Source: Acaryochloris marina S15
Lineage (GTDB): Bacteria > Cyanobacteriota > Cyanobacteriia > Thermosynechococcales > Thermosynechococcaceae
Direction of reading: 5' to 3'
Assembly: GCF_018336915.1 (NCBI RefSeq)
Contig: NZ_CP064927.1
Span: forward strand, 60,001 to 92,000
DNA length: 32,000 nucleotides
The notes under the pieces are model-generated. The model ran no database searches. It was given only the letters and a program-made list of their open reading frames with translations, and was not told the origin of the DNA. The translations under genes and the position numbers were made by a program. Positions 12,360-32,000 of the stretch are shown one piece after another. Every line of letters starts with the position of its first letter. The stretch's first letter is position 1.

Positions 12360-12407
12360 TACTCAACTCCTAGGGAAAAGGCTGCTGATCAAAAACAAGG
12401 TTGCTTC

Positions 12408-13082
12408 TCAATAATTACAGCTAACTTGGCCATCTGGAATAAGACCTATTTGGATCGACTGACCATAAAAATCTCCTTTCTGCTCAATCTTAAATCCACC
12501 CAATAGCAGCCCAAGCCAAACCGCTACCAAAGGTAATCGAACTCCCCTCACCAGCTCTACAAACGACACCGCCCCCTTAGCCCCTTCCAAATACTCACAA
12601 ATCGCGCCCACCCAGGCCCCAACATCCTCGACATGGCTTACTTTCAGGGCAACCGCTTCCCCAGACTCCAGCTCATCGACAAACTCTAGAACCGCATCCT
12701 TACTAACTTCCCCCACAACAGACTCAACAGGAACCCCCGTGAACCCCTGACGACTCTTCCGTGACTTCGGCTGACGACACAGATCCGAGACATCCAGAAA
12801 CATAGTCTGCTGAATCATCCCAGCTAAGAAATCCTCATCCAACACAGGACCTTCTGAGTTGTATCTGTCTTCCCAACCCTGGATCATTAGCTCTGCCCGC
12901 TGAAAACAGACCTCAGCCATATCCTTGATCGCATCCCCAGCCACTCGGAGCTGTTCGTGGGGAGAACGACCCTGTAGATGCTGCTCCAGTGAGGCACACA
13001 TCAGGGAAATATCAGCTTGCTCAGGTTCGTCTAAAGCAGAGGCCAAAGCACTGGCAAAATCTAGCTCAAGCTGAGTGAACAT
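12408..13082 (-). CDS. hypothetical protein (acidic, hydrophobic C-terminal segment)
   Basis: Long ORF with no recognisable motif. I prefer ATG 13082 (MFTQLELDF) because the longest form (13166) overlaps the upstream gene by 100 nt. The segment LPLVAVWLGLLLGGF could be a membrane helix. Confidence 0.55.
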   Translation of the reverse strand: MFTQLELDFASALASALDEPEQADISLMCASLEQHLQGRSPHEQLRVAGDAIKDMAEVCFQRAELMIQGWEDRYNSEGPVLDEDFLAGMIQQTMFLDVSDLCRQPKSRKSRQGFTGVPVESVVGEVSKDAVLEFVDELESGEAVALKVSHVEDVGAWVGAICEYLEGAKGAVSFVELVRGVRLPLVAVWLGLLLGGFKIEQKGDFYGQSIQIGLIPDGQVSCNY

Positions 13083-13593
13083 AGCGCTTATCCTTGAGTG
13101 GACATTCCGCAATTTCGCACTCAGAAGGTTCCATGCGAATCGGGGGTTCAAACTCCGTGATGCCATACCGATCGCCTAGGACCTTCAGTACCTCCTTCAA
13201 ATACCGATTCACTTGGGTATTGGTCATTCCCATACAGTGGACAGCTTCAATTTCCGCTAACTTATCACTCCCCTGCCAGACAGTGATAGCCAGGGCATGG
13301 AGGTGAGCATCCTTGGGCTTTTCTTTGTAGAGGTAAAGCAACGCCACGGGTGGAGCTTGGACGGGAATCGAGAAGGTTTCCGTGGTTTTTGCTGGCGCTG
13401 CTTTTGCTTTCTGGTCAGCGTATTCTCCTCGGCGCTTGGCATTGCTTTCTTTGCGGTGGCGGTAGTGATTTCGTTTGCGATCGCAGGCATTATCCGTCCA
13501 GCACCCATCCCCTTGCGGCCCATGAACCCGCTTTGCTTCCATCCGGGAATAGTCGATGCATTGGAGGCAGATGGGGTTTGGAGGTAGTGGCAT
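13066..13593 (-). CDS. hypothetical Cys-rich / basic protein
   Basis: 175-aa ORF starting at ATG 13593. It has an N-terminal CLQC...C...C cluster followed by a Lys/Arg-rich stretch. It is the first gene of a minus-strand three-gene string (13593->11709). No family was recognised. Confidence 0.55.
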   Translation of the reverse strand: MPLPPNPICLQCIDYSRMEAKRVHGPQGDGCWTDNACDRKRNHYRHRKESNAKRRGEYADQKAKAAPAKTTETFSIPVQAPPVALLYLYKEKPKDAHLHALAITVWQGSDKLAEIEAVHCMGMTNTQVNRYLKEVLKVLGDRYGITEFEPPIRMEPSECEIAECPLKDKRYVHSA

Positions 13594-16900: not shown

Positions 16901-17149
16901 ACTGTCAATGGCGTGAGCATCAGCCCCGATGGCCAAACCGTAGTCTCCGCGTCTAATGACAATACCCTGAAGGTGTGGGACCTGGAGATGGGCATGGAAG
17001 TGATGAGCTTCACGGGAGAAGGCGCGTTTCGATGTTGTGAGATTGCCCTAGATGGTCGCACCGTCATTGCTGGAGATTTTGGGGGGCAGCTTTACTTTCT
17101 GCAGCTAGAAGGCCCCAGCTTTTCAGACGGCGGGGAGGTCATCTCATGA
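13907..17149 (+). CDS. STAND NTPase: CHAT-like (caspase-fold) N-domain + NB-ARC + WD40 propeller
   Basis: aa 8-185 have a caspase/CHAT-like layout (ILFLASNP ... IIHFAGSGKG ... CVILNGCYS ... AFAVGFYDALGAG). NB-ARC motifs are GVQGMGGIGKSVLA (P-loop), LLILDDVW, LVVTTRD, CGNLPLAL and SLHDLQQDY. These are followed by 8 near-identical and 1 degenerate WD40 units (GHT..V.GVSISPDGQT.VSAS.D.TLKVWDLETGQE). Confidence 0.9.
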   Translation: MTSPSPEQQTILFLASNPDGLRQLGRELRDIKNGLRRSEHRDQFTLCPCLDVRTIDIQRALLDETPQIIHFAGSGKGEAGLVFEDQAGNPKLVTGAALAGLFELFAEYIHCVILNGCYSQVQAQAIAQHIDYVVGMQQAISNEAALAFAVGFYDALGAGRDIEFAFKLGCSAIQIEGLPESLTPVLVQKSSLQSAPLQPLPEQQTHEKLWKVPELPPHFLPRPQTLKALREKVLTDLAQPVVMTGQRIGVQGMGGIGKSVLATALARDPQVQSAFPDGIYWLTVGIEPNLLAQQIDLAAALCGERQVFEDINEGKTRLQTLWQGRQSLLILDDVWRIADAEVFNVLGHHSTLVVTTRDSELITGLGATDFSLSVLHEDQALELLAAWVGVPISDLPSQAQTVARECGNLPLALAQCGAMVRDLTPWPHVLSALQDSDLEFIQKQFSHYSYPDVFKALHVSATVLAATNPIAAERYQELAVFPADELIPEAVIVRLWQYTGALKERDAGKILTTLSRKGMLRLEGDYPQRQVSLHDLQQDYLQAQQADQKVLHQQLLEAYHQSCSEGWHCGPKDGYFFEHLAHHLQQAERTDELWQLLWDYRWIHHKLGVTDINALLLDYETLPKDKDLNIVHSGLRLSSHVLNQYPEQLPSQLYGRLMSQDLPHVTALTQSLAQGPGECWIRCLFPHLNQAGGALVRTLTGHTSHVTGVSISPDGQTVVSASGDNTLKVWDLETGQEQRTLTGHTSHVTGVSISPDGQTVVSASSDHTLKVWDLETGQEQRTLTGHTNFVNGVSISPDGQTVVSASSDHTLKVWDLETGQEQRTLTGHTFAVEGVSISPDGQTLVSASRDKTLKVWDLETGQEQRTLTGHTASVFGVSISPDGQTLVSASSDHTLKVWNLETGQEQCTLTGHTSFVNGVSISPDGQTLVSASWDKTLKVWDLETGQERRTLTGHTDFVEGVSISPDGQTLVSASWDKTLKVWDLETGQEQRTLTGHTSTVNGVSISPDGQTVVSASNDNTLKVWDLEMGMEVMSFTGEGAFRCCEIALDGRTVIAGDFGGQLYFLQLEGPSFSDGGEVIS
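15995..17002 (+). repeat. 8 x 126-bp near-identical tandem coding repeat (WD40 units); a degenerate 9th unit follows to ~17110
   Basis: CGCACCCTCACCGGACATACT recurs at 15995, 16121, 16247, 16373, 16499, 16625, 16751 and 16877, an exact 126-bp period. Confidence 0.95.
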
Positions 17150-17285
17150 CTTAAATCGTTCTAATATCCCTCCAATTCCTGCCTTAACGTTCGGGGTGTT
17201 CTTTCACAACCGAAGGCTATCGATGTCGCATTTCAATACTTGAACGTTCCACTATCTTTTGCCCGAATTTATCTGCCCTACCCTC

Positions 17286-18383
17286 ATGACTGCCCAAACC
17301 ATTCTCTTTCTCGCTGCAAATCCTAAAGATACTCAGCCTCTTCGATTGGATCAGGAGTTAAGGGATATTGGTGAGGGTTTACAGCGGGCTCAACATCGAG
17401 ATGAGTTTAAGCTTGAACAGCGACTGGCGGTTCGCCCCCATGATATTCAGCGGGCCATGCTAGATCTGAATCCCCAGATCGTTCATTTCTCAGGCCATGG
17501 GAATGGGGATGAGGGCTTGGCCTTTGAGGATGTCAGTGGCAACACCCAGTTGGTCAGTGGTGAGGCGATTGCAGACCTGTTTAACCTGTTTGCCGATCAA
17601 CTGCGCTGCGTAGTCCTCAATGGCTGCTATACCGAGGTGCAAGCAAAGGCCATCTCAGAACATATTCCCTATGTGATCGGGATGAAACGGGCGATTGGGG
17701 ATAAAGCGGCGATCTCCTTTGCCGTGGGATTCTATGATGCCCTGGGGTCAGGACGAGATGTGGAGTTTGCCTTCAAGTTGGGCTGCACCGCCATTCGTAT
17801 GGAAGGCATTGAAGAACATCTCACTCCCGTTCTGATTAAAAAGCCCATTACAGAGGAAACTAAGGATCAGGATCAACCCAAGGCTCAAGCTCGTCCAACA
17901 CCTACGCCTTCTCCCATGACTCCAAACGCCGATGCCCCCTTAGAGGTCTTTATTTCCTATTCCCATAAAGACGATGATTTGCGAGAAGAGTTAGACATCC
18001 ATCTCTCCAATCTGAAACGACAGGGGAAAATTGCTGCTTGGCATGATCGGGCGATTGAAGCAGGGGAAGAATGGGAAACCCAAATCAAAGGCCATCTGGA
18101 GTCCGCTCAAATCATTCTGCTACTGGTCAGCCCACCCTTTATGGCCTCTAACTATTGCTATGACATTGAGATGCAACGAGCGATAGACCGCCATAACGAA
18201 GGCACAGCCCGAGTCATCCCTATTATTCTGCGTCCCTGTGACTGGAAAGGGTCACCCTTCAGTAAGCTTCAGGTACTCCCTAAAGATGCCAAGCCCGTGA
18301 CGAAATGGGCTGATCGCGATGAGGCATTTTTGGATGTCGTCAACGGGATACGGAGGGCGGTAGAGACCCCACTAAAAAAGTAG
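17286..18383 (+). CDS. CHAT-like (caspase-fold) N-domain + TIR domain protein
   Basis: ATG 17286 (MTAQTILFLAANPKD) parallels the start of the upstream protein; the track ORF starts at TTG 17259. The N-domain has QIVHFSGHGNG ... CVVLNGCYT. A P/T-rich linker follows. The TIR has LEVFISYSHKDDDLREEL...AAWHDRAIEAGEEW...IILLLVSPPFMASNYCYDIEMQRA. The stop TAG at 18381 comes directly after A_AAA_AAG. Confidence 0.85.
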   Translation: MTAQTILFLAANPKDTQPLRLDQELRDIGEGLQRAQHRDEFKLEQRLAVRPHDIQRAMLDLNPQIVHFSGHGNGDEGLAFEDVSGNTQLVSGEAIADLFNLFADQLRCVVLNGCYTEVQAKAISEHIPYVIGMKRAIGDKAAISFAVGFYDALGSGRDVEFAFKLGCTAIRMEGIEEHLTPVLIKKPITEETKDQDQPKAQARPTPTPSPMTPNADAPLEVFISYSHKDDDLREELDIHLSNLKRQGKIAAWHDRAIEAGEEWETQIKGHLESAQIILLLVSPPFMASNYCYDIEMQRAIDRHNEGTARVIPIILRPCDWKGSPFSKLQVLPKDAKPVTKWADRDEAFLDVVNGIRRAVETPLKK

Positions 18384-18420
18384 ACAACTCTTCGTCAGGG
18401 CACAGTCCACCAACGGAGAG
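18374..18420 (+). promoter_or_regulatory. candidate -1 frameshift site (A_AAA_AAG + 0-frame TAG + downstream hairpin), or the scar of a 1-nt homopolymer deletion
   Basis: The 0-frame codons are CTA AAA AAG TAG. The heptamer at 18374-18380 is in the correct phase. The -1 frame is open from 18323 and reads ...KKVDNSSSG...NLPRSGVVKFVGRDQ into the NB-ARC ORF. CTCTTCG (18388-18394) can pair with CGGAGAG (18414-18420), 7 nt after the heptamer. Confidence 0.4.
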
Positions 18421-18520
18421 TCATCAGGGCCAGGGACCAGAAGCCTCGTCATCTTCCCAGGCAAGTCCCCCTCATAACCTCCCTCGCAGCGGTGTCGTTA
18501 AATTTGTCGGTCGTGACCAA

Positions 18521-20674
18521 ATGCTGCAGGACTTGCACCAGCTCCTCCAAAAGAACAATCCAGTAGCCCTCACTGCATTAGCAGGCATGGGTGGGATCGG
18601 AAAGACTGAACTTGCCCTGCAATATGCCATCTCCCAGCTCGATCAGGGTCAGTACCCTGGAGGACTTTGCTGGCTGCGAGTGAAAGGCCAGGAGCTAGCC
18701 GCCCAAATTATCGAATTTGCCCAGACCAAGTTAGTCCTGACCCTCCCGGATAGACTCGATGAAGACCAACAGGTGAGTTATATCTGGGGGCAATGGCCCA
18801 TCGGAAAGGTGCTGATTATTTTTGATGATGTGATGGACCTTAAGACTGTCCAACCGTACTTACCGCCATCAGATCCACGGTATAAAGTACTGATCACCAC
18901 CCGACAGGATTTAGGTCTATCCGTTCATTCCCTTTCCATTAAAGAACTGAGCGATACGAGTGCCTTATCCCTACTGAGAACCTTAGTTGGAGCCGACCGC
19001 ATTGATGCTCAGCTCGACGATGCCCAAGCCTTATGTGAATGGGTGGGTAAATTGCCCTTGGGACTAGAGTTAGTGGGACGGTATCTAGCCAGAAAGCCAG
19101 ACTGGTCCCTCCAAAAGCTGATCAAGCGACTTGACTCCAAGCGACTGGAAGCCAAAGCCCTGACGACTCCAGCATCAGGAATGACCGCACAGTTTGGGGT
19201 CGCTGCTGCGTTGGAATTAAGCTGGGTAGAGCTGAATGAGGCAGAGCAGGAACTGGCTTGCTTTTTGGGGATGTTTGCGGTTGCTCCTATTCCTTGGACT
19301 TTGGTTGAAGGATGTCTATCCGAACAGGATAAGGATGACTTAGAAGACATCAGAGATGAAGGTTTGAAAGATAGGAACCTACTCAAACGAATAGAACAGA
19401 GTACCTACCAACTCCATCAAATTGTTCAGGAGTTCTTTCGGATTAAGTTGAATGAGGATTCCGAACAGGGGAAATCCCTCAAAGCCGATTATTGCAGAGG
19501 AATGGTTGCAGTTGCTCAGGGTATTGATGACAGTCCAACGCTTGATGTGATTGCCCAGATGAGTGCCAGCATTCCCCATCTAGAGGAACTGATCAACCAG
19601 TGGATTGACCACCTCGGTGATGATCAATTGATTTGGCCCTATGTCGGTATTGGTCGATTTTATGAAGGGCAAGGGAACTATGCATTGGCTTTACCTTGGA
19701 GACAAAAATGCCTGGAACAGACTCAACAAAGATTGGGCACCGAACACCCCGATGTCGCTCTTAGCCTCAATAACCTGGCATTACTCTACGACAACCAAGG
19801 ACGGTATGAGGAGGCAGAACCCCTCTATACACAAGCTTTACAGATGACACAGAAGCTCTTGGGCAACGAACACCTCTCTGTCGCTCTTAGCCTCAATAAC
19901 CTGGCAGGACTCTACGAGAACCAAGGACGGTATGAGGAGGCAGAACCCCTCTATACACAAGCCCTACAAATGAAAAAGAAGCTCTTGGGCAATGAACACC
20001 TCTCTGTCGCTCTTAGCCTCAATAACCTGGCAGGACTCTACGAGAACCAAGGACGGTATGAGGAGGCAGAACCCCTCTATACACAAGCCCTACAAATGAA
20101 AAAGAAGCTCTTGGGCAATGAACACCCCTCTGTCGCAACTAGCCTCAATAACCTGGCAGCACTCTACAAAAACCAAGGACGGTATGAGGAGGCAGAACCC
20201 CTCTATAAACAAGCCCTACAGATGAGACAGAAGCTCTTGGGCAATGAACACCCCGATGTCGCTGGTAGCCTCAATAACCTGGCAGCACTCTACGACAACC
20301 AAGGACGGTATGAGGAGGCAGAACCCCTCTATACACAAGCCTTACAAATGACACAGAAGCTATTGGGCAATGAACACCCCTATGTCGCTCTTAGCCTCAA
20401 TAACCTGGCAGCACTCTACAAAAACCAAGGACGGTATGAGGAGGCAGAACCCCTCTATACACAAGCCTTACAAATGACACAGAAGCTATTGGGCAATGAA
20501 CACCCCTATGTCGCTCTTAGCCTCAATAACCTGGCATTACTCTACAAAAACCAAGGACGGTATGAGGAGGCCAAATCTTATTTAAAGCAAGCACTAAAGA
20601 TAGTAGAGGTCGTCTTGGGTCCAGAGCATCCTTCTACTCGGACCATGCAAAATAACTTAGAGTCCATCCCCTAG
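18521..20674 (+). CDS. STAND NTPase: NB-ARC + TPR array (conserved coding sequence extends upstream to at least 18380 without a start codon)
   Basis: LAGMGGIGKTELA (P-loop), VLIIFDDV, VLITTRQ and VGKLPLGLELVGRYL, then 7 near-identical 42-aa TPR units (LGNEHP.VA.SLNNLA.LY.NQGRYEEAEPLYTQALQM.QKL). The first ATG (18521) cuts off the conserved NLPRSGVVKFVGRDQ segment that precedes the P-loop. Confidence 0.85.
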   Translation: MLQDLHQLLQKNNPVALTALAGMGGIGKTELALQYAISQLDQGQYPGGLCWLRVKGQELAAQIIEFAQTKLVLTLPDRLDEDQQVSYIWGQWPIGKVLIIFDDVMDLKTVQPYLPPSDPRYKVLITTRQDLGLSVHSLSIKELSDTSALSLLRTLVGADRIDAQLDDAQALCEWVGKLPLGLELVGRYLARKPDWSLQKLIKRLDSKRLEAKALTTPASGMTAQFGVAAALELSWVELNEAEQELACFLGMFAVAPIPWTLVEGCLSEQDKDDLEDIRDEGLKDRNLLKRIEQSTYQLHQIVQEFFRIKLNEDSEQGKSLKADYCRGMVAVAQGIDDSPTLDVIAQMSASIPHLEELINQWIDHLGDDQLIWPYVGIGRFYEGQGNYALALPWRQKCLEQTQQRLGTEHPDVALSLNNLALLYDNQGRYEEAEPLYTQALQMTQKLLGNEHLSVALSLNNLAGLYENQGRYEEAEPLYTQALQMKKKLLGNEHLSVALSLNNLAGLYENQGRYEEAEPLYTQALQMKKKLLGNEHPSVATSLNNLAALYKNQGRYEEAEPLYKQALQMRQKLLGNEHPDVAGSLNNLAALYDNQGRYEEAEPLYTQALQMTQKLLGNEHPYVALSLNNLAALYKNQGRYEEAEPLYTQALQMTQKLLGNEHPYVALSLNNLALLYKNQGRYEEAKSYLKQALKIVEVVLGPEHPSTRTMQNNLESIP
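19733..20614 (+). repeat. 7 x 126-bp near-identical tandem coding repeat (TPR units)
   Basis: TTGGGCAA(C/T)GAACACC recurs at 19733, 19859, 19985, 20111, 20237, 20363 and 20489. Units 19859-19984 and 19985-20110 differ at a single nucleotide. Confidence 0.95.
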
Positions 20675-20812
20675 AAAGCCACCAACCAAGACCAAATCAA
20701 TCAAAGTCAGTCCTGGCAAGAACTTCATGTTGTTAGTCGAGATCGCAAACGTACAGCAATCGCCACCTATATAGAGTTGTATGGCATACCGATAGCTATT
20801 CTCGTGCTTTTA

Positions 20813-21754
20813 TAGCACTACGAAACTGTGTTAGTACTATAAATAGAAGCTATCACTGCAGAAGTATGCCAGCCCCCTATAGTTATGACCTTCGCTGCAA
20901 AGCGATTGCTGCGGTCAAGAATGGAGAACGGAAAGTCGACGTATGCCGGATGTTAAACATCAGTCGGAACACCTTGCACTTATGGATAGCGCGAGAGGAA
21001 TCGACCGGTGATTGTCAGGCCATTACCCACTACCAGCAAGGAGCTCGCCACAAAATTACAGATTGGGAGCGCTTTCGTGAATTTGCTCAAGAGCATGGGG
21101 GAAAGACTCAGGCCCAAATGGCTAAATTATGGGGTGATAATGTCACCCAGCAAAATATCAGTGATGCCTTGAAGAAATTAGGCTTGAGTCGAAAAAAAAG
21201 ACCTATGGCTATCGAGAACGGGATGAAACGCAACGCCAAGCCTTTATAGAGCGGTTACAGACCAAACATCCTCACCAGATAGTCTATGTGGATGAAGCAG
21301 GTATCGATAATCGAGCGGATTATCCCTATGGATATTGCCCCATTGGTCAACGATTCTATGACCTTAAATCAGGCAAGCGGACAGAGCGAGTCAGTTTCAT
21401 TGCTGCGCTCAAAGAGCGACAGTTATTTGCCCCGATGACTTTCGAAGGGTCTTGCAATCGTTTGTTATTTGAGGCGTGGTTACAGCAGAGTCTCCTGCCC
21501 CAGCTGCACCCTGGCGATATTATCGTGATTGATAATGCCAGTTTTCACCATGGACAAAGTATCGAAGAAATCGTAGCTGAAGCAGGGTGTGAGATTTGGT
21601 ATCTACCGAGCTATTCTCCTGATCTCAACAAAATTGAGCGATGGTGGTTTGTATTCAAAAACTGGATGAAGCAGCGATGGGATGAGTTTGACACTTTTCG
21701 TGATTGTGTAGATGCTGCCTTTAAGGAGTGTACTAACGTATTCCCGTAGTGCTA
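20813..21754 (+). mobile_element. IS630-family insertion sequence (942 bp) with TA target duplication
   Basis: Termini are TAGCACTACG...TTAGTAC (20813-) and the reverse complement TAGCACTACG...TTAGTAC (-21754). Each is flanked by TA (20811-12 and 21755-56). A two-frame transposase lies inside. Confidence 0.8.
20866..21749 (+). CDS. IS630-family transposase, expressed via a -1 frameshift at an A8 run (orfA 20866-21249, orfB frame to 21749)
   Basis: orfA is an HTH (MPAPYSYDLRCKAIAAVKNGE...LNISRNTLHLWI). After CGA AAA AAA A (A-run 21192-21199) the -1 frame reads KTYGYRERDETQRQAFIERLQ...VYVDEAGID...VIDNASFHH...LPSYSPDLNKIERWW, a DDE_3 domain with the D,D,D/E triad. Confidence 0.8.
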
Positions 21755-21790
21755 TATTCTTCATCAGGATAGGGAGTTTTATCTTCCAGC

Positions 21791-23166: not shown

Positions 23167-23678
23167 GGGGTATGACAACGATTCCTCGGATAGGAAATTG
23201 TCAGCTTTGAGTAGTCAAAATTGAGGGATTTGCATCCATCTGATAGGCTGATTGCTTACCCTAAGCTAACCCCCGTCTACCTTCCATGGATTGTCCTCAC
23301 TGCCACTCAACCCGAGTCTCTTTTCTTCAGCGTAAAACGAACCTCGGGTATGACATGTTCCGCTGTAAGCAATGCCGCCGCACTTACAATGAACGCACAG
23401 GCACTCCCTTCAATTTTATTGCAGTCCCCACAGACATAGTATTCCAGGCACTCCTACTCCGAGTACGCTACAAACTCAGCTACCGAGATGTGGCCGAGTA
23501 CTTCTTGATCCGTGGCTTTACATTTACCCATGAAACCGTGCGAGATTGGGAAGCAAAGTTCTTGCCTCACTTTAGTGAACAGATTCGGACTAAACGGCCT
23601 CAAACGACCGAAGCTGCGTTTTGGGGCAGCTTAAACCTAAAAGTCATGAATAGCAACGGTTTCAGATACTCTCATTAA
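23167..23678 (+). mobile_element. IS6-family element, left end with truncated transposase (pseudogene)
   Basis: The terminus GGGGTATGACAACGATTC lies at 23167-23184. ORF 23286-23678 begins with a zinc ribbon CPHC...RCKQC, followed by ERTGTPFNFIAVPTDIVFQALLLRVRYKLSYRDVAEYFLIRGFTFTHETVRDWEAKF (IS6-type HTH). No DDE core follows; the sequence diverges after ~aa 105. Confidence 0.6.
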
Positions 23679-24286
23679 ATGTTGCTTATTGAAAATCTAG
23701 TCAGCTCGCAAACGCTGTAACGCCAGAAATTGGTTCAGTGCCATAGTGCATTTATACTAAATTGCCCCATATCGCAGCTTCCGTTGTTTTAGGCCTCTTA
23801 GGGCCGCTGATGTCACTATTCTCCTCGACGTCAGCAGGTTGACGTCATACAGCAGGTGCGCACGCAGAAATTGGAGGTACCTCTTCCGAAGTAGGCCTGG
23901 ACTGCCCGATAGATGCCCTGAAATATTGATAGTCCCTCGACTCTGCCAAATTATCTGGCAGTTCCCGAGCAATGTTTTGCCTCAGCTTTTTAATGAAGTT
24001 AATAATAGCGACGCTTGTTTTTTCCACGTCCGAAATACGGAAGAACGTCAGGCAGCACTTCAATACCTCGGAATCGAAGAGAGGACAACGCCTGGCTGAT
24101 TGCCATATTTCCCTTCTGAACTCACTTTTCAGGGCTGAACTATACACCGCCTAACAAATCGATGCAGTCGGACATTTGAGCTTGTTCGTTGGCCATAACC
24201 AGAAAAGCATAATGTTGCCGGAGCGGCAAAGTTATGGTGTGTACGACATTACAGAGTCGGGCCTGGGAAGACCATTATTTCGTGTA

Positions 24287-24306
24287 ATTTTTCGTGTAAT
24301 ACAGAT
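24287..24306 (+). repeat. 20-bp direct repeat copy 1 (ATTTTTCGTGTAATACAGAT), candidate attL
   Basis: Identical to 31725-31744. It lies 76 nt upstream of the recombinase ATG, is preceded by a partial tandem copy (TTTCGTGTAAT, 24278-24288), and overlaps the palindrome CAGATTTT-GGTAT-AAAATCTG (24302-24322). Confidence 0.6.
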
Positions 24307-24381
24307 TTTGGTATAAAATCTGGAATTAAAATCTCCGATCTAATATAGTGATCTGCAAGTGCTGATTCAGTGGTGTAATTT

Positions 24382-25785
24382 ATGTCGCGTTTCTCTCAAA
24401 CTTCCGACATCCCGCCTGTGCGTCTCATTGAGTTTGAAAAGGGAAAATCAGAGGAGAGCAGGACCCCGATTCCGGTGAAGCCAGCGGTGGTGAATCTGAG
24501 ATCGCAACGAATCGAACAGTTCCTCACCCTGAAGAATCTGGCGGCCAACACCCAGCGAAACTATGAACGTCATTTGAGGCAGTTCAGTTTGTGGGTGAAT
24601 AAGGACTGGCATCAGATTACCATGAACGATCTGAAGCGCTACAAGACTTATCTGGAGTCGGGTCGGGAGTTGAAGCAGGGGTCAGTGGGGGCTGTCCTGA
24701 TTGCGATCAAGAGCTTCTTCTCTTGGTTGATCAAGGCTGGGTATATCGAGGATGACCCCAGTGCAGCGATTAGTATTCCCGTGACCCCAGAGACTGAGGG
24801 AAAGAACCTGGAACTGTTTCAGGTGGAGGCCCTGTTTGAAGCGTTGGTAGGTCGGAGTACTGAGATCCGGGACCGAGCCATTCTCTGTTTGATGATCTAT
24901 GCCGGGTTAAGAGCTGAGGAAATCTCTCTGCTGAATGCCGGGGATTATAACGGGGTGGAGATCACAATTCGGCAGGCCAAGCATGGGTCCGTGGGTAAGG
25001 TGCCAGTCGATGATCTAACGGATGAAGCCCTAAGAGCAAATCTCCAAATTCGGATGAAGGACTGCGAGGGAGGGATGGCAGCGGATGATCCGATGTTTGC
25101 CTCTACGAGTCATCGAAATAAGGGGCAGCGGTTGGGGTATGAGGGCATCTATAAGCTGGTCAAGGCTTTGGCTCAGGATGCTGGCTGGCCTGATATTCAT
25201 CCCCATAAAGGACGACATACCTATGCCAGTCAGTTGATTGAGAATGGCATGGATGCTTACCTGGCGATGACATTGATGCGGCAGCGATCTGTGAAGGCAT
25301 TCGAGGTCTATTCCCAGAAGGTCAGGTATCGGACGGCTAAAGGAGTATTTCTGGAAAACAAAGGGGAGATGGAGCGACAGCCCATGTCTTTGGAAGAGCT
25401 GGTTGAATTTAGCGAGGTGCCAGTGGTAGAAAAGGCGATTGAGCTCAAAGTTGTCACTGAGGAGCCTGCGAACTGGCCCAAGATTACTGCGGTGGATCTG
25501 CCCTTGAATGCGGTTCAGGTGAGGCTGACGGTTGAGGTTTCAGGGAAGAAAAAGGCCAAGGTTAGAAAGGAGATCGAGGAGCGGGTGCTGAGTCAGTTTC
25601 AGATGGTCAAACCCAAGCCGAGAGGGAATGAGTATGAGCTGACGGTTGTTGGGGAAGACAATGAATTGTCAGCGATTCTCTCGCAGATGGAGTGGGATAT
25701 AACTCTGCTGGCGGAGTTGGATGATTGCTCAGTGAAAGTCAAGTGGCTCAAGGAAGTCCCTGGGTCAAGGGATGCCATTTCATGA
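24382..25785 (+). CDS. tyrosine recombinase/integrase (XerC/D-like core) with ~130-aa C-terminal extension
   Basis: N-terminal SAM-like core-binding region (TQRNYERHLRQFSLWV...IKSFFSWLIKAGYIEDDP). The catalytic domain has IYAGLRAEEIS (Arg I), IHPHKGRHTYAS (His/Arg II) and AFEVYSQ (candidate Tyr). Residues ~335-467 have no counterpart in standard Xer proteins. Confidence 0.8.
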   Translation: MSRFSQTSDIPPVRLIEFEKGKSEESRTPIPVKPAVVNLRSQRIEQFLTLKNLAANTQRNYERHLRQFSLWVNKDWHQITMNDLKRYKTYLESGRELKQGSVGAVLIAIKSFFSWLIKAGYIEDDPSAAISIPVTPETEGKNLELFQVEALFEALVGRSTEIRDRAILCLMIYAGLRAEEISLLNAGDYNGVEITIRQAKHGSVGKVPVDDLTDEALRANLQIRMKDCEGGMAADDPMFASTSHRNKGQRLGYEGIYKLVKALAQDAGWPDIHPHKGRHTYASQLIENGMDAYLAMTLMRQRSVKAFEVYSQKVRYRTAKGVFLENKGEMERQPMSLEELVEFSEVPVVEKAIELKVVTEEPANWPKITAVDLPLNAVQVRLTVEVSGKKKAKVRKEIEERVLSQFQMVKPKPRGNEYELTVVGEDNELSAILSQMEWDITLLAELDDCSVKVKWLKEVPGSRDAIS

Positions 25786-26628
25786 TGCCCCAGTGGAGTG
25801 TTCCTCTAACCAGGTTATGAGATCAGCAGTTTTCGTAAAGTCGAGCAAGGCTTCGCCCAAGGTTTCGAGTTGGTCAAGGGAGAGAGATTGAATCTGAGAT
25901 CGCGTCTCTGACGGAATGTCACCAATGCGTCGGGTGAGCAGGCGGAGGACAAGCGATTGGGCTTCTTCAAGCTTACCTTTGGTAATGCCAGTCTGTTCGA
26001 ATTCCTCTTTCCACTCTTGATAGATAACTGACTGTTGCATAATCTCTTTCCGCAGAACTTGATTAATGACGTCCCTCTCCAATGTTAACCCAGCTAGGAT
26101 TCCGGTTGAAGCTGCGACATTACTTTGAGCCCGTATTTCTGGAACTGCATCAATACGTTCAGCCACCTGTCGCAAAGTTTGAGCTTGATCTGGGGTATTG
26201 GTTAAAACCGCCAATGGAAGCAACCCCGTCGATTCCAGAAAGAGTTCTGTTGGTTGCTCCCAAAGGCGGATTACCTCAAATTCATGGCGAGTTCCCGGAA
26301 TCTCAAAGGCTGTCTGGTAAACATAATAGGATTGGGATGGCGTCAAATATATCACCACCTGTTTCATTTGCTTCTGGGGAAAGCGACGATAGACTCGCAG
26401 ACGATAATCAGCCATCCTGTAAGGCATATTTGGATCCGGTTTAGTCTGAAACTCAACATGCAAAATATATTCATCAGAAGCTAGAAGAATTAAGGCATCG
26501 GCTCGGATTGGTTCGAGTGATAGTTCTGAGGGACTGAGTTCAGTGAGCGGAATGGGTTCACCGAGTAGCCAAGAGGCAAAATCACTGGAAAAGCTTTCTG
26601 CAAGGAACTTACAGGTGGAATCGAACAT
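25780..26628 (-). CDS. Rpn-family recombination-promoting nuclease / putative transposase with DUF4351-like C-terminus
   Basis: DSTCKFLAESFSSDFASWLLG ... IRADALILLASDEYILHVEFQTKPD (PD-(D/E)xK-like) ... YRMADYRLRVYRRF. The C-terminal part is EEAQSLVLRLLTRRIGDIPSETRSQIQSLSLDQLETLGEALLDF. This architecture is very common in cyanobacteria. Confidence 0.8.
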   Translation of the reverse strand: MFDSTCKFLAESFSSDFASWLLGEPIPLTELSPSELSLEPIRADALILLASDEYILHVEFQTKPDPNMPYRMADYRLRVYRRFPQKQMKQVVIYLTPSQSYYVYQTAFEIPGTRHEFEVIRLWEQPTELFLESTGLLPLAVLTNTPDQAQTLRQVAERIDAVPEIRAQSNVAASTGILAGLTLERDVINQVLRKEIMQQSVIYQEWKEEFEQTGITKGKLEEAQSLVLRLLTRRIGDIPSETRSQIQSLSLDQLETLGEALLDFTKTADLITWLEEHSTGAS

Positions 26629-26685
26629 GCAGGAATTATATCAGTCTCTGGAGGATGTTCTCTTTGGGTAGGCTGTCCTTAGCTA

Positions 26686-27918
26686 TAGATCTACAGATAA
26701 AGATCCGTGATTAGCTAGGCAGCTTGTGTACCCAAGGTTTTGCAATATTTGCCCATTAAGACAGTAATTTCATTGGGAGTCTGACTAAAGTACAGTAGCC
26801 CCTCATCGACCTGCTGAACTAAGTCATCAAATTGCTTGAAGAACCGTAGGTGTGTGCTGCGTTTTTTGAGTTTCTTCCACAAGAATTCAATTGGGTTGAA
26901 GTCAGGAGAATATGTGGGTAATTGGAAAGGAGTAAGGCGAGCGGATTGCTGGTCAAAGAACTGCTTAGTTGCTTTACTGGTGTGATATCTAGCCCCGTCC
27001 TGAATGAGAATAATATGCTTGTGAGTCTGCTGGAGTACTTGAGTTAGAAAAGCAGTATACCCTTCAGAATTGAAGCGTCCCGTCTGACCTTGATAGAAGA
27101 ACTGACCAGAATGATAATCAATTAATCCAAACACCTTGTAAGCCTTCCGTTTACCACTGGTGGGCAATGTTGGCTGGTCTCCACGAAGACTCCAGGTGTA
27201 GCTTAACGACCCCCACTGCGCAAAACTGGCCTCATCCCCAAATAAAATTAGGGCATCTTTGGCTGCTGATAAACGCAAAATCTCAGGCCATTTGTGTGTC
27301 ATCCATTCTTGTCGCTTGGCTTCATTGAGATGAGCTGCAACAAACCGTGCTCTTTGAAATGAAAAGCCTAAGTTCCTCAGTAGAGTACTCACATAATGGG
27401 ATGATAGGAAACATTGAAGCGTTTCGCAATCAGGTCTTGAACCATTAATGCACTCCAACAACCACACTCGTATCCAGCTTTGAGCGGACCTGCTTTAATC
27501 CATGACTTGAGCTGTTGTCGTTGCCGTGGAGTGAGTTTGCTGCGACGTCCTTGAGACGCTTTGTATCTAAAGCTAGCGATACCTCGTTTTAGAAATGCAT
27601 GCAGATAATCCCTGATCGTTTGTTCGCCTAGTGCCAATGTTTCAGCTACCTGTGCCACTGAACCACCTTGACCAAGCTGCAATAAAGCACTAATACGTTT
27701 GACCAGACGTAAATTCTGACTCCCGTATGCCTGGCGCAGTTTAGCTTCAATCTTTTTGCGTGTTGATTGGGTAAAGCGCAGTTTGAATTGTGCGAGCATA
27801 CTGGATGACCTCTGATAATCTTGAAATCCTTGCCAGAGCTAAGAGTATCAGGAGCTAGTTACTATATTTAATGAAGATGTAGTGTCGCTAAAACCACGGA
27901 TGCTTTTCTGAAGATCTA
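26686..27918 (-). mobile_element. second, unrelated IS630-family insertion sequence (1233 bp) with TA duplication
   Basis: Terminal repeats of ~30 bp: TAGATCTACAGATAAAGATCCGTGATTAG (26686-) and the reverse complement TAGATCTTCAGAAAAGCATCCGTGGTTTTAG (-27918). They are flanked by TA (26684-85 and 27919-20). Confidence 0.8.
26715..27799 (-). pseudogene. IS630-family transposase, frameshifted (orfA 27389-27799, orfB 26715-~27400)
   Basis: orfA ends ...IAKRFNVSYHPIM*. The -1 frame continues HYVSTLLRNLGFSFQRARF...LFGDEASF...LIQDGARYH...PTYSPDFNPIEFLWKKLK (DDE_3). The junction is at a CCC run (27398-27400), not at a classical slippery heptamer. Confidence 0.75.
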
Positions 27919-27963
27919 TAGACAAACCCGTCCAGCGCTCAGAGTTGAGAACATGACTTTAGC

Positions 27964-29634
27964 TCAGTCGATAATTTGAATCTGGTAGCTGTAACCTTGC
28001 TCCGTCAAAAATAATTGTCGATGTCGAGCAAAATCCTCTTCGCAGGTCTGTAATGAGACGAGACTATAAAACTGTGCAGGGTGACCATCTGCCTTGGGGC
28101 GGAGAATTCTGCCCAATCGCTGAGCTTCTTCCTGACGCGAACCATATTTACCTGAGACCTGAATTAAAACATCAGCATCGGGTAAGTCCAACGCAAAATT
28201 TCCTACTCTGGATAGTACGAGTCCCTGAAATTTCCCTTGGCGAAATTCTCCATAAAGCCGTTCCCGTTCCTTTTGAGCAGTTTTCCCAGTAATTAACGGC
28301 AAGTCTATCAATTCAGCGATCGCTTGGAGCTGGGAAATATACTCACCAATAATCAAAATTCGATGCCCGCTCTCTTGCTGCAATAGCTCCTCTATGACCT
28401 TCAGCTTGCGTGGATTCTCCGCTGCGACCCGAAATTGCTGTCGGCGAGGAGTCAGGGCATATTCCATTTGCCGTTCTGGGTCTTGGCCAATCCTGATTTC
28501 AGTACATTCTGCAGTGGCGATAAAGCCTTGCCCTTCCAACTCTCGCCAAGGGACGTCATAGCGTTTAGGGCCGATCAGTGCAAACACATCCCCCTCACGG
28601 CCATCTTCACGGATTAGCGTTGCGGTTAGTCCCAAGCGGCGGCGAGCCTGTAACTCAGCCGTAACTCGAAAGATAGGAGCAGGGAGCAGATGGACTTCAT
28701 CATAGATGACCAGTCCCCAAGCATGAGCATTAAACAGCTTAAAGTGTGGAAACTCAGATTCGGGTGAAGGTCGATAGGTGAGAATTTGGTAGGTTGCCAG
28801 GGTAACTGGGCCGGTTGATTTTTGCTCACCACTGTATTCAGCAATGGCATCTTCAGGCAGGTTAGTTTTATCTAATAACTCCCGCTGCCACTGGCGGACG
28901 GAGGTCAGATTGCTGGTAAGAATGAGGGTATGTTCTTGGACTGCAGCCATAACGGCCATCCCCACCATTGTTTTGCCCGCTCCACAGGGCAAAACAATCA
29001 CCCCACTCCCACCTTGAGTACTTCCCGCTTGATAAAACATATCTGCAGCGTCTTGTTGATAGGGTCGCAGGTGAAACGATGAACCAGTTCGAGTTTGTTG
29101 GAGCAGCTGGAGCGATAAAGCCTCCCCATCCACGTATCCTGCAAGGTCCTCAGCTGGGTAGCCTGCTGTCAGCAAGGCTTGTTTCAGAAGTCCTCGATGA
29201 CTGTAGTCAACCTGAAAGGAGCGGTTAGACTTTTGTACCCCTAACAGTGGAGAGACCTGCTCGTCTCTGCGTAAGAGTTCGACTAAAGGTAGGGTGGCAA
29301 TCGTCAGCAACAACTGGAGCCCATCTTTTTCAATCACGGTTAATCCATACCGCTGTCCCAATGCCTCAATTTCTTGAGCCACGGCATCTGGCATGGGATA
29401 TTTTGCATGCTGTTTGAGTGCTCCAATCATCTCTGATATGGGCATCCCAGCAGCCCGAGCATTCCAAATGCTGAGGGGGGTCAGTTGATAGGTATGGATA
29501 TGTTCGGGGCTTTTGACTAATTCCGCAAAAGGGGAGATCGCTTCCCGAGCAGCATCAGCAGTGGGAGCATGCACCTCCAAGAGTACGGAGCGATCACTCT
29601 GAATGATTAAGGCATTTTCAGCAATGTAGGTCAT
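27964..29634 (-). CDS. XPB/ERCC3-type SF2 DNA helicase
   Basis: N-terminal XPB-type domain (LIIQSDRSVLLEV...HIHTYQLTPLSIWNARAAGM). Helicase motifs present: RPYQQDA, VLPCGAGKT (I), VIYDEVHLL (II, DEVH), GLTATLIRED (III) and, late, ...SRVGNFALDLPDADVLIQVSG..GSRQEEAQRLGRILR (V/VI). Confidence 0.9.
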   Translation of the reverse strand: MTYIAENALIIQSDRSVLLEVHAPTADAAREAISPFAELVKSPEHIHTYQLTPLSIWNARAAGMPISEMIGALKQHAKYPMPDAVAQEIEALGQRYGLTVIEKDGLQLLLTIATLPLVELLRRDEQVSPLLGVQKSNRSFQVDYSHRGLLKQALLTAGYPAEDLAGYVDGEALSLQLLQQTRTGSSFHLRPYQQDAADMFYQAGSTQGGSGVIVLPCGAGKTMVGMAVMAAVQEHTLILTSNLTSVRQWQRELLDKTNLPEDAIAEYSGEQKSTGPVTLATYQILTYRPSPESEFPHFKLFNAHAWGLVIYDEVHLLPAPIFRVTAELQARRRLGLTATLIREDGREGDVFALIGPKRYDVPWRELEGQGFIATAECTEIRIGQDPERQMEYALTPRRQQFRVAAENPRKLKVIEELLQQESGHRILIIGEYISQLQAIAELIDLPLITGKTAQKERERLYGEFRQGKFQGLVLSRVGNFALDLPDADVLIQVSGKYGSRQEEAQRLGRILRPKADGHPAQFYSLVSLQTCEEDFARHRQLFLTEQGYSYQIQIID

Positions 29635-29637
29635 TTT

Positions 29638-31506
29638 CTAGGAGAGGGAGATGCTATAACCGAGTTTTCGTAAGGCATTGCGAAATTTTGTCTCTCCATC
29701 TGTGGGCACCACTAGATGACGGTCGCCTGCTAAAAAACAGAATTTCTTGGTACGGGAATCGTTGGCAATCAGGGTGGCAAGCATGGGGTCATTGCATTCA
29801 ATCAGCCGAGCGGTCCCCTGATCGACTAAGCTCTGACTCCGAGTTTCTAAATCTGCTATAAACTGCTCGACCGTGTTCGGCAATGGATCTAGACTGCCTT
29901 TTTCCAGAAATTGCTGCAGGTCTTTGAGGCCATGGCCAGAGGCAAGAGAACTCAAGGCTTGCTCCCGATTCAGCTTCCAGACAACATCAGACTCCTGTTT
30001 GGCATACAGTTCTAACACTAGGGTCTCAGCACTAGTAAGGGGTTGACCCGTCACGATCACGTCTAGATTGGGTAGAACTCGGAGGGTCGATTCCACGGCC
30101 ACTGCAGTAGGAGTGTATTGAGTAACTGATCCCAAACAGTAAGCCCCTAAGGCGTTTACCCGAAAACAGACTAAACCGTCATATCGACTCACAAACGCCA
30201 AGTTGTCTGCTCCCCAGTAATCATTCACCTCCTCCACTTCTCCGTCATAGGGAGAAACATAACCGACATCAATGAGGCCAAGGGTAGCAGCATATTCCAA
30301 CAAGAAGCACCGCAAATAGCATGACTGCAAAATGCTCCAGTCCGACCCAGCATCGTATAAGTCACCATAACCAGATTCAAGAAAGTAGAGGTTTTCTGGA
30401 TTTCGACTCACAACAAAGGTCTGATGGGTCGCAATCATATACCGTCTAAAGTCTGATACATCGATCCATTCCATGACTGGACAACCCTGAAGGGCGGCCA
30501 AGATAACTGACCGGCGATTGGGTGGAGATGTCAATCCTCGTTTCCCTTTTCCGGTTTGGCCTTTAATTTGATCAATACGACGCAATTCATCAAACTGTCG
30601 AGTCTTGAGCCATTTTTTCCAGGCGATCTGAAGCGTTTTAGCCGGGTCTGTGCCTAATGCTTTTTGACCGGCAGGGGTGAGTTCTAATTTCTTGCCAGAT
30701 AGAGAAGCAAGTCCAGTGGCTTGGACAATGAGGGGCCAAGCGAGAGATTTGATGGGGCCAATCGGGTGATTTTCCTGCCAGTCCTCAGTCGGGACAAATT
30801 CGTCATAATAGTCCCCACCTTGAAGGTGGGGTGATATTGTTTTGATCGTTGCAGCAGAGGGGAGGTAGGTCTTGTCACTCACGGCAACTTTGCCCAGGTT
30901 GATCAGACGAAGGATGGCCAGAAGATCCTGATGGGCGACTCGTTCTGTTTCAACATGAGTAATCGGTAAATGCTCGGTGATAATTTGTTCGGTTCTAGAT
31001 TGATAGTCATACAAGATTCGCTCCATCGCCCAAAGGGTGGGCTTTTCCTTTGATGTCTTTAGGGTTAACTTCTTAGGTTGAGGAACGAATTGTTGGAGTT
31101 CCAGATGGAGATCACCAGGGAGAGTTATACCCGGTTCAGAAGAATACCGATTGCTGGTATAGAAGAACAATCCTAAAGCGGAGGGAGTATGAAAGTACCC
31201 ATATTTTCGCTCTCCCCAATGTGGATGGCTACCATACTTGGCCTCGAACGGAAGGGCTTGAAACTGACCATCTATTGAATAAGTCGCTTCTGCTACGGCA
31301 GCTTGCTGAACCGGGTCAAGTGTGTTCCAAATGGCTCTTAGCTTCTTCCCTTGCAGATGAGTTGCAATTTCTTTAACGAGGTCATTCTTCCGAGTCAATT
31401 TGTGACTTATAGGTAACAAATTGAGCAACTTTTTCAAATAGTCAACGTTACGCTGACTGAGTGCTTCGGTGACGGTTGAAAATTGCTCGTAGGAAGAATA
31501 GGCCAT
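29638..31506 (-). CDS. XPB-associated protein of unknown function (C-terminal XPB-N-terminal-like domain)
   Basis: 622-aa ORF whose stop lies 3 nt before the helicase ATG. The last ~148 aa (LRVLPNLDVIVTG...LELYAK...WKLNREQALSSLASGHG...PLPNTVEQFIADLE...RLIECNDPMLATLI...RNALRKLGY) mirror the order of conserved elements in the helicase N-terminal domain. No catalytic motif was recognised in the first 470 aa. Confidence 0.75.
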   Translation of the reverse strand: MAYSSYEQFSTVTEALSQRNVDYLKKLLNLLPISHKLTRKNDLVKEIATHLQGKKLRAIWNTLDPVQQAAVAEATYSIDGQFQALPFEAKYGSHPHWGERKYGYFHTPSALGLFFYTSNRYSSEPGITLPGDLHLELQQFVPQPKKLTLKTSKEKPTLWAMERILYDYQSRTEQIITEHLPITHVETERVAHQDLLAILRLINLGKVAVSDKTYLPSAATIKTISPHLQGGDYYDEFVPTEDWQENHPIGPIKSLAWPLIVQATGLASLSGKKLELTPAGQKALGTDPAKTLQIAWKKWLKTRQFDELRRIDQIKGQTGKGKRGLTSPPNRRSVILAALQGCPVMEWIDVSDFRRYMIATHQTFVVSRNPENLYFLESGYGDLYDAGSDWSILQSCYLRCFLLEYAATLGLIDVGYVSPYDGEVEEVNDYWGADNLAFVSRYDGLVCFRVNALGAYCLGSVTQYTPTAVAVESTLRVLPNLDVIVTGQPLTSAETLVLELYAKQESDVVWKLNREQALSSLASGHGLKDLQQFLEKGSLDPLPNTVEQFIADLETRSQSLVDQGTARLIECNDPMLATLIANDSRTKKFCFLAGDRHLVVPTDGETKFRNALRKLGYSISLS

Positions 31507-31724
31507 CGCTGTTAGTGCTTGGTCAAAGTGATAAGGGTAGGCTTGGTGTCTCTAGACTCCTCCATAGTTTGACAGTCAAACACCTAATACTACAAGAGAA
31601 TTAAAGGCATGTTAGCTCAATAATCTGTAACGCTTCCAGATCAGGCAAACAGAACCACCAACAAACAGCAGATTTCTCAACGTCATTCCTGGAAAGAATT
31701 TCAGCGTCGAGTCTGAAATGGATC

Positions 31725-31744
31725 ATTTTTCGTGTAATACAGAT
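31725..31744 (+). repeat. 20-bp direct repeat copy 2 (ATTTTTCGTGTAATACAGAT), candidate attR
   Basis: Identical to 24287-24306. It lies 219 nt beyond the start of the 622-aa gene. Confidence 0.6.
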
Positions 31745-32000
31745 AATGATTTGTTGAATCTCAATTAATCGTGCCGCCCCAAAAATTGGCAAAGTCTTGC
31801 CGCCGACATTTCCGAGTAAGCGATCGCCCACGCCCACGCTCTCGCAAAGTTTGCCTTGGACAAGCAACTTATTGCAGATGTTGATCTTCAATGGAAGCGG
31901 AACAGATTATTATGTTGTCGATAAGAGTATATTAATTGGGCATATTTGTACGAATTCACAGGCTTGTAGCACTTTAGCTTTGAGGCTAGCACAATGATCT

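Follow-up and report, generated by a model that had tools for sequence, protein, structure and literature searches.

Known partners of XPB helicases

A bacterial XPB was reportedly found in Mycobacterium leprae in 1997, and its role and partner are said to have been open since. Here, a two-gene operon is described from a stretch of 32,000 nucleotides (nt) of Acaryochloris marina S15 DNA (contig NZ_CP064927.1, positions 60,001 to 92,000, forward strand), the whole of which is called the window. The operon encodes an XPB helicase and, upstream of it, a protein of 622 amino acids (aa) that is referred to as the partner. It is probably a self-contained unit composed of a eukaryote-type XPB double-stranded DNA translocase and a dedicated p52/Tfb2-like subunit, which by analogy with transcription factor IIH (TFIIH) would act as an adaptor and activator of XPB. 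The helicase family is known; the partner family has been catalogued but is uncharacterised.

The closest described systems are those of TFIIH, of the archaea and of Mycobacterium tuberculosis. In TFIIH, XPB is found with p52 and p8 (ERCC3, GTF2H4 and GTF2H5 in human; Ssl2, Tfb2 and Tfb5 in yeast). The N-terminal domain of XPB is the part that binds p52 (PMC6422496, PMC7708078), the "clutch" of p52 shares its fold with this domain, and the resulting pseudo-symmetric dimer recruits XPB (PMC6422496). The p52 and p8 subunits activate the ATPase of XPB and limit its DNA-dependent activity (PMC7708078). A structural paper on p52 reports no structural homologues for its N-terminal domain, MD1 or MD2 (PMC7708078). 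Archaeal XPB works with the nuclease Bax1 (PMC7672443), which it binds through ThM and HD2 (PMC13024598), and the N-terminal domain is missing from most archaeal XPBs (PMC3353954). The biochemically studied bacterial XPB is that of M. tuberculosis (Rv0861c), which was treated alone; the same work states that neither a p52 homologue nor a Bax1-type partner had been found in bacteria (PMC3353954). A 2026 review still describes the function of XPB in bacteria and archaea as "more elusive" (PMC13024598). No description of a bacterial p52-like partner of XPB was found in the searchable literature, which is incomplete, and a paper on Druantia that mentions bacterial XPB was irrelevant to the partner.

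Organization of the operon

The operon and the domains of its two products are located in the window as follows.

29638-31506, minus strand: partner gene, a 622-aa open reading frame (ORF) with a predicted p52/Tfb2-like fold
31231-31506, minus strand: partner aa 1-92, helical with a SAP-like motif (AlphaFold2 (AF2) secondary structure), a putative DNA-binding module
30952-31215, minus strand: partner aa 98-185, beta-rich domain (strands 98-108 and 158-185 in the models)
30127-30948, minus strand: partner aa 187-460, two winged-helix-like alpha/beta domains (187-301 and 330-460; AF2 models)
30529-30567, minus strand: motif IKGQTGKGKRGLT, partner aa 314-326 (conserved alignment columns)
29662-30087, minus strand: partner aa 474-615, clutch-like C-terminal domain (Pfam Helicase_C_3 and hhalign), the predicted docking site for XPB
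27964-29634, minus strand: gene of the XPB (ERCC3/Rad25/Ssl2-type) superfamily 2 (SF2) DNA translocase, 556 aa, downstream of the partner gene
29236-29610, minus strand: XPB N-terminal domain, aa 9-133 (Pfam Helicase_C_3, 105.9 bits)

The two genes meet at the junction TAG-AAA-ATG with a spacer of 3 nt, as had been read from the sequence in a preliminary description of this DNA. A scan of the operon for promoters and terminators provided nothing informative (one promoter-like site against 4.5 expected).

The operon shares with TFIIH an XPB of the same type and a partner that is predicted to follow the p52 fold over its whole length, including a domain like the N-terminal domain of XPB. It differs from TFIIH in that the pair is encoded as an operon, that the partner exceeds human p52 by 160 aa and carries an additional N-terminal region, SAP-like and beta-rich, and that genes for p34, p44, p62 and XPD were not recognised in the neighbourhoods examined. 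The likeness to archaeal XPB-Bax1 is that in both cases the XPB motor has a dedicated partner to which it is linked genetically; the archaeal partner modulates the ATPase (PMC7672443, PMC13024598), and the window partner would do so by analogy. Bax1, however, is an XPG-related nuclease that sits on ThM/HD2, whereas the window partner has no nuclease fold. The XPB of M. tuberculosis has the same NCBIfam name as that of the window, "DNA repair helicase XPB", and likewise consists of an N-terminal domain and two RecA domains (PMC3353954). A bacterial operon of XPB-p52 type in which p8 and its binding domain are missing and the N-terminal region of the partner differs appears undescribed in the literature that could be searched. 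Rv0862c, upstream of Rv0861c, may be the mycobacterial counterpart of the partner.

The XPB helicase

The downstream gene product matches NCBIfam model NF045503 with 840 bits (cut-off 610) over aa 8-552 of 556 and contains the Pfam domains Helicase_C_3 (aa 9-133), ResIII and ERCC3_RAD25_C. The motifs GAGKT at aa 218 (SF2 motif I), DEVH at aa 312 (motif II) and TATLIREDG, which includes RED, at aa 337-345 are all present, and the earlier identification of this protein as XPB is therefore upheld. By analogy, drawn from the biochemistry of M. tuberculosis XPB only, the protein may have 3'-5' helicase and DNA-dependent ATPase activity (PMC3353954).

Comparison of the window XPB with PDB sequences gives scores of 283 bits for yeast Rad25 and 267 bits for human XPB, as against 136 and 118 bits for the archaeal XPBs of Archaeoglobus and Sulfolobus (XPBII). 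Judged by sequence, it is a eukaryote-type XPB that is much closer to the eukaryotic than to the archaeal proteins. The alignment with human XPB (8ebt_A) starts at aa 9 of the window protein and so takes in the N-terminal domain. Because this domain is present, and most archaeal XPBs lack it and pair with Bax1, the window pair parallels eukaryotic XPB-p52 and not archaeal XPB-Bax1.

Resemblance of the partner to p52/Tfb2

The AF2 model of the full-length partner, obtained with the family alignment, has a mean predicted local distance difference test score (pLDDT) of 81.6 and a predicted template modelling score (pTM) of 0.70. Foldseek comparison of this model with 350,542 PDB chains identified only TFIIH chains at E <= 0.01, with p52/GTF2H4/Tfb2 from human, Chaetomium and yeast followed by the N-terminal domains of XPB/Ssl2. 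The top nine matches are human and Chaetomium p52/Tfb2 chains with E-values from 4e-7 to 1e-5, and yeast Tfb2 ranks 17-18. Representative E-values are 4e-7 for human 8ebs_D, 7e-7 for human 6nmi_D, 1e-5 for Chaetomium 6trs_B and 1e-4 for yeast 7o4i_2, with probabilities of 0.99-1.0. The alignments with the p52/Tfb2 chains from cryo-electron microscopy cover about 630-650 columns and span both proteins, that with the shorter 6trs_B covers 456 columns, and those with the XPB/Ssl2 N-terminal domains cover about 150-180 columns. Beyond the p52/Tfb2 and XPB chains, no Foldseek match has an E-value below about 0.5. The identity of the p52 chains was confirmed by a PDB search with the human p52 sequence. 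Since p52/Tfb2 and the XPB N-terminal domain are its only significant structural relatives, the partner resembles the eukaryotic and not the archaeal partner of XPB.

The C-terminal part of the partner can also be related to XPB by sequence. An hhalign comparison of its profile with that of the XPB N-terminal domain gives an E-value of 1.3e-5 and a probability of 81% over 95 columns, aligning partner aa 509-612 with XPB aa 48-144. On this profile evidence, the C-terminal domain of the partner is a homologue of the XPB N-terminal domain and corresponds to the clutch (MD2/HubA) of p52. The window partner itself has a single Pfam match, Helicase_C_3 (PF13625) at aa 477-589, which with 28.4 bits is below the gathering score of 34.2, and the same family is matched in 36 of 36 aligned family members (best E 9e-10). 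The XPB N-terminal domain scores 105.9 bits with PF13625 and a Rhodococcus relative of the partner scores 45.9 bits; vertebrate p52 has a sub-threshold match at the clutch (aa 327-376, 26.8 bits, E 5.9e-6). This one family matches all three and therefore links the XPB N-terminal domain, p52 and the bacterial partner. No other Pfam family was convincing in the 36 aligned members, and the partner has no matches in NCBIfam and PADLOC.

Domains and conserved motif of the partner family

The partner family has more than 1,600 matches in a database clustered at 90%, most of them cyanobacterial. At 50% clustering, 3,203 representatives have E <= 1e-3, including 825 with E <= 1e-30. At NCBI, the relatives are labelled "hypothetical" or "helicase-associated domain-containing protein"; the latter label names the C-terminal domain only and carries no function.

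The first 92 residues are predicted to form a SAP-like helix-extended-helix arrangement (TVTEAL..VDYLKKLL..TRKNDLVKEI), for which a DNA-binding role is putative; Pfam matches to SAP/FANC_SAP are weak and limited to a few family members. This N-terminal region is absent from many relatives, with the Rhodococcus homologues and many representatives matching from about aa 181-187. The beta-rich domain that follows (aa 98-185) has no significant Foldseek match. The best conserved part of the family is the pair of winged-helix-like domains at aa 187-460, which in the models appears weakly collinear with the N-terminal half of p52. A separate AF2 model of aa 1-470 has a pLDDT of 82 and a pTM of 0.83. 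The remark in the preliminary description that the first ~470 aa show no recognisable catalytic motif stands, as Foldseek of that part identified no enzyme fold; more generally, no nuclease or other enzyme fold was recognised in the partner by Pfam in the 36 members or by Foldseek with the full-length and aa 1-470 models.

The most conserved motif of the family is IKGQTGKGKRGLT (aa 314-326), in which the columns I314, K315, G316, Q317, T318, G319, K320 and T326 are invariant or nearly so. Basic and glycine-rich, the motif differs from a canonical Walker A. The loop that contains it is predicted to be disordered, with pLDDT below 50 at aa 311-324 in both AF2 models, and is a candidate that may contact DNA or XPB.

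Conservation of the gene pair

Partner relatives were collected by a scan of one genome per GTDB species, which gave 299, and the best 80 of these 299 were examined. An XPB gene is located downstream on the same strand in 70 of the 75 loci for which 1 kb or more beyond the partner gene is available, and in 63 it lies within 1 kb. When the flanking ORFs are clustered all against all, only the partner and XPB families recur across genera. Over 61 loci, the pairwise divergence of one protein correlates with that of the other at r = 0.97, and the partner evolves about 1.8 times faster than XPB. The pair is conserved across at least three phyla. Between the pairs of the gammaproteobacterial Competibacteraceae and those of cyanobacteria, XPB is 73-75% and the partner 55-57% identical; these identities match those found within cyanobacteria and therefore point to lateral transfer of the pair as a unit.

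The gap between partner and XPB is a recurrent insertion point, and both genes are intact despite the inserts. Seven of the GTDB loci (numbered L003, L007, L011, L067-L069 and L076) have 1-7 kb inserted there, and in the close relative L086 the insert contains YoeB/Phd toxin-antitoxin genes and an HI1420-like gene (11881-13465). A reversed gene order is found on a plasmid of Deinococcus sp. QL22 (L091), where XPB is followed by a 99-aa ORF and then by the gene of an 811-aa Helicase_C_3 protein, a distant relative of the partner (hhalign E 1.3e-4). The 99-aa ORF (L091 4583-4882) has no Pfam match and overlaps the gene of the 811-aa protein by 4 nt; it is a possible candidate for a p8/Tfb5-like third subunit.

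Several results weigh against a p52-like subunit dedicated to XPB. The TM-scores (template modelling scores) between partner and p52 are low (0.2-0.3) and the root-mean-square deviations large, which fits a flexible multidomain chain and is also weak evidence. With aa 1-470 alone, the best Foldseek match is still p52 (6tru, its N-terminal half), but with E 0.053 and probability 0.57 it is not significant, so a large share of the signal seen for the whole chain may stem from the clutch-like domain. The remaining weak matches of aa 1-470 are to winged-helix DNA-binding proteins; matches to Cas7/Csa2 had probabilities below 0.1 and were disregarded. In sequence, neither Tfb2 (PF03849) nor Tfb2_C (PF18307) is detected by Pfam in the 36 members even at E <= 10, and a PDB sequence search with the partner family profile provided nothing at E <= 10. 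The hhalign comparison of the partner family is non-significant with human p52 (E 0.085) and with a vertebrate p52 alignment (E 0.046), the profile of which is shallow (vertebrate sequences only, at least 75% identical); it still pairs the expected region, partner aa 508-547 with p52 aa 343-389, around a common "..LP.T[IV]..Q" motif. The partner also has no counterpart of the p8-binding domain at the C-terminus of p52, as the clutch-like domain extends to about aa 612 of 622 and leaves no room for it; no p8-like gene was identified, and a small conserved third gene was not found in the cyanobacterial loci. Given the missing Tfb2/Tfb2_C match and the lack of room for the p8-binding domain, the partner is regarded as p52-like in build and probably in working and is not filed under the Tfb2 family. 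The linkage is also incomplete: XPB is not adjacent at 5 of the 75 loci, nor at the plasmid homologues of Polaromonas and Rhodococcus. Finally, the evidence on the biological role is weak and indirect.

Proposed mechanism and significance

The reading as an XPB translocase with a p52-like subunit builds on direct observations of the operon structure, the conserved linkage, the co-divergence, the domain homology and the p52 fold similarity. The conserved adjacency, co-divergence and domain homology suggest that the partner and XPB form a physical complex and that the partner regulates the ATPase; anchoring on DNA by the partner is suggested by analogy. In the proposed mechanism, partner aa ~474-615 would pack on the N-terminal domain of XPB as a pseudo-symmetric heterodimer and would also touch the second RecA lobe (HD2). 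This packing would keep the motor ATPase-competent and tune its DNA-dependent activity. The SAP-like and winged-helix-like N-terminal domains of the partner would tether the complex to DNA or a client protein, and the anchored motor would then pump or twist the duplex open. As no nuclease domain is recognised in either protein, cutting, if any, would need other enzymes. The module would most likely serve as an accessory, horizontally mobile genome-maintenance system that acts at lesions or stalled complexes by opening or remodelling the DNA, and not as a dedicated anti-phage system.

A p52-like subunit in an XPB operon provides a concrete two-protein complex for purification, structure determination and assay, and it could explain the poor in vitro performance of XPB alone. 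A family now labelled "hypothetical" or "helicase-associated domain-containing protein" could gain a functional hypothesis. The pairing also bears on the origin of TFIIH, since it would either predate eukaryotes or have been exchanged with them. It is tentatively suggested, as a rather unlikely extension, that the bacterial operon, as a minimal DNA-opening machine of two subunits, shares true evolutionary homology with the XPB-p52 sub-module of TFIIH, and that the eukaryotic core may derive from bacteria or their mobile elements and not from an archaeal ancestor. The grounds for such a bacterial origin are that bacterial XPB is far closer to eukaryotic XPB and that archaea use the unrelated Bax1.

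Genomic setting and alternative explanations

The operon is surrounded by the following features.

26683-27921, minus strand: IS630-family element with helix-turn-helix (HTH) and DDE_3 ORFs and terminal inverted repeats
25780-26628, minus strand: gene of an Rpn-family (DUF4351) recombination-promoting nuclease/putative transposase (Pfam DUF4351, NCBIfam TIGR01784)
24382-25785, plus strand: gene of a tyrosine recombinase of 467 aa (Phage_integrase and SAM-like N-terminal domain in Pfam; XerA/XerC/XerD-like in NCBIfam)
24287-24306, plus strand: left copy of a 20-bp direct repeat, perfect, the core of a longer imperfect repeat
31725-31744, plus strand: right copy of the 20-bp direct repeat, perfect, 219 nt upstream of the partner start codon

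The preliminary description had placed an IS630 on one side of the pair and a 20-bp repeat on the other, in a segment that starts with a tyrosine recombinase, and all of these were recovered. The IS630 element lies 42 nt past the XPB stop codon, is composed of an HTH ORF (27389-27799) and a DDE_3 ORF (26715-27467) between terminal inverted repeats of 30 nt (26683-26712 and 27892-27921), and is 99.4% identical to a copy on the Acaryochloris plasmid pMB07. The repeat ATTTTTCGTGTAATACAGAT brackets a 7.4-kb segment (24287-31744). The recombinase gene begins 76 nt past the left repeat copy and encodes an uncharacterised C-terminal extension of about 150 aa; it converges on the Rpn gene with an overlap of 6 nt. 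The Acaryochloris plasmid pMB01 also carries the recombinase and Rpn module, there with the recombinase divided between two ORFs. The NB-ARC, TIR and CHAT genes of the window, its recombinase-Rpn module and its IS630 have 85-99% matches on Acaryochloris plasmids.

It was at first proposed that the partner may be a functional analogue of archaeal Bax1; in the form considered here, it would be a nuclease that cuts the DNA opened by XPB. Archaeal XPB does work with such a nuclease, and a partner gene coupled to XPB is compatible with a helicase-nuclease pair. However, Pfam in the 36 members identified neither Bax1/DUF790 nor any nuclease family at E <= 10, Foldseek with both partner models returned no Bax1 chain or nuclease fold even though XPB-Bax1 complexes are in the PDB, and the window XPB, with its N-terminal domain, belongs to the eukaryotic type, unlike the Bax1-binding archaeal type (PMC13024598). 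A Bax1 or nuclease partner, lacking support from Pfam or fold, is rejected as highly improbable; the relatives are instead p52/Tfb2 and the XPB N-terminal domain. A different proposal is that the pair is an anti-phage or anti-plasmid system, carried as cargo by mobile elements or defence islands, in which recognition of invading DNA or of a phage protein by the partner would bring the XPB motor into action against it. The window is full of conflict and mobile genes (NB-ARC-WD40, CHAT-TIR, NB-ARC-TPR, two IS630, a Mutator-family (IS256-like) transposase, Rpn and the tyrosine recombinase), close relatives adjoin TIR, CHAT, VMAP-C or NACHT-like genes, BrnTA and RES toxin-antitoxin genes flank the pair on a Gloeocapsopsis plasmid, the Polaromonas plasmid homologue adjoins Hachiman, and the distribution is patchy with transfer between phyla. 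Against this stand a lack of matches to the partner in PADLOC-DB 2.0, where XPB has weak partial matches to generic helicase components (PbeA, Cas3), and a lack of any recognised effector such as a nuclease or toxin domain. Among 127 neighbours (~58 non-redundant loci), none of 243 Pfam families is found in more than 5 and no PADLOC model in more than 3; single loci adjoin TIR, CHAT, NACHT-like, Hachiman or toxin-antitoxin genes without any family recurring. A conserved third gene or neighbourhood was not found outside the genus Microcoleus, in 22 genomes of which the pair belongs to a conserved block with fumarase, DUF362, methyltransferase, WecG and epimerase genes and, on the other side, Fe-ADH and aminotransferase genes. 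The upstream genes of L086 encode CemA, a sigma factor and a pyridine nucleotide-disulphide oxidoreductase (Pyr_redox_2/Pyr_redox_dim). None of 50,697 phage records contains the partner, and of 72,556 plasmids only 15 do, for which reason phage or plasmid cargo in general is rejected; these 15 are mostly large replicons of at least 300 kb, and none of the Acaryochloris plasmids in PLSDB carries the pair. The mobile and conflict context of the window does not generalise to the family: the setting had been rightly described as rich in mobile DNA, but the role in conflict or plasmid maintenance drawn from it does not carry over to the ~58 loci, across which only the pair itself is conserved. A core-genome context with repair genes, which would have spoken against a conflict role, is found in part, as the Microcoleus block is stable and made up of metabolic housekeeping genes but has no repair genes near the pair, and repair neighbours do not recur across related loci. 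The case for a conflict role is weak, and we consider it unlikely and not the best-supported reading.

Whichever role is assigned to the XPB-p52-like pair, its position raises the further proposal that it is the cargo of a 7.4-kb integrative element (24287-31744) moved by the tyrosine recombinase, with the 20-bp repeats as the attL and attR cores. The perfect repeat occurs at both ends with the recombinase gene beside the left one, and 0 of 100 shuffles of the window matched it, even with up to 3 mismatches. The repeat copies diverge outside the core, and on pMB01 a stretch like the left flank of the right copy is joined contiguously to one like the right flank of the left copy upstream of the homologous recombinase, which is an attP-like topology. 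In a contig of a related strain (L081, the closest relative), homology is limited to 27938-31730 and ends inside the right repeat; nucleotide identity is 88% and the partner proteins are 92% identical, and beyond the breakpoint upstream of the operon the window sequence is replaced by a NACHT-like P-loop NTPase (GGPGIGKTT; L081 103-2082). Conversely, the recombinase-Rpn module of pMB01 is without the XPB pair, and the repeat core occurs on pMB07 and pREC3 without an annotated integrase nearby and could thus be a repeat of the dispersed kind. Plasmids and metagenomes provided no empty site: a synthetic query for it gave no contiguous match in plasmids, and a metagenome scan with the 20-mer gave 2 matches with unrelated flanks, which is about the chance expectation. 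Relatives at 68-71% identity have no recombinase within 10 kb. An integrative element of this kind is plausible but on balance doubtful; either way, the setting is local and Acaryochloris-specific and is not a property of the family.

Other features of the window and related plasmids

The longer imperfect repeat around the 20-bp core is found in the window at 24215-24330 and 31640-31770, in L090 at 7935-8085, in L092 at 4001-4034 and in L093 at 4001-4054. It is present on at least three Acaryochloris plasmids, often adjoining Rpn/DUF4351 genes, and either the recombinase or Rpn-type elements may use it as a recombination site. The left copy in the window contains an internal tandem duplication in which TTTCGTGTAAT occurs twice.

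The Polaromonas homologue is a 591-aa protein encoded without an adjacent XPB on the conjugative IncP plasmid pPNAP01 of Polaromonas naphthalenivorans (L085 5989-7764). Its gene adjoins Hachiman (HamA and a DEAD/DEAH helicase) and an AAA ATPase with a Gene Ontology term for double-strand break repair.

Elsewhere in the window, a cluster of conflict-type STAND genes (13907-20674) encodes NB-ARC+WD40 (1,080 aa), CHAT+TIR (374 aa) and NB-ARC+TPR (717 aa) proteins and is 85-93% identical to segments of several Acaryochloris plasmids. A second, different IS630-family element with terminal inverted repeats is located at 20811-21756. Five further features are a Mutator-family (IS256-like) transposase (3828-5141), two FGE-sulfatase fragments (5296-5745 and 7181-7750) that resemble one disrupted gene, a ParA-type ATPase (9803-10525) and an IS1595 zinc-ribbon fragment (23286-23678), which are signs of a plastic or plasmid-like region.

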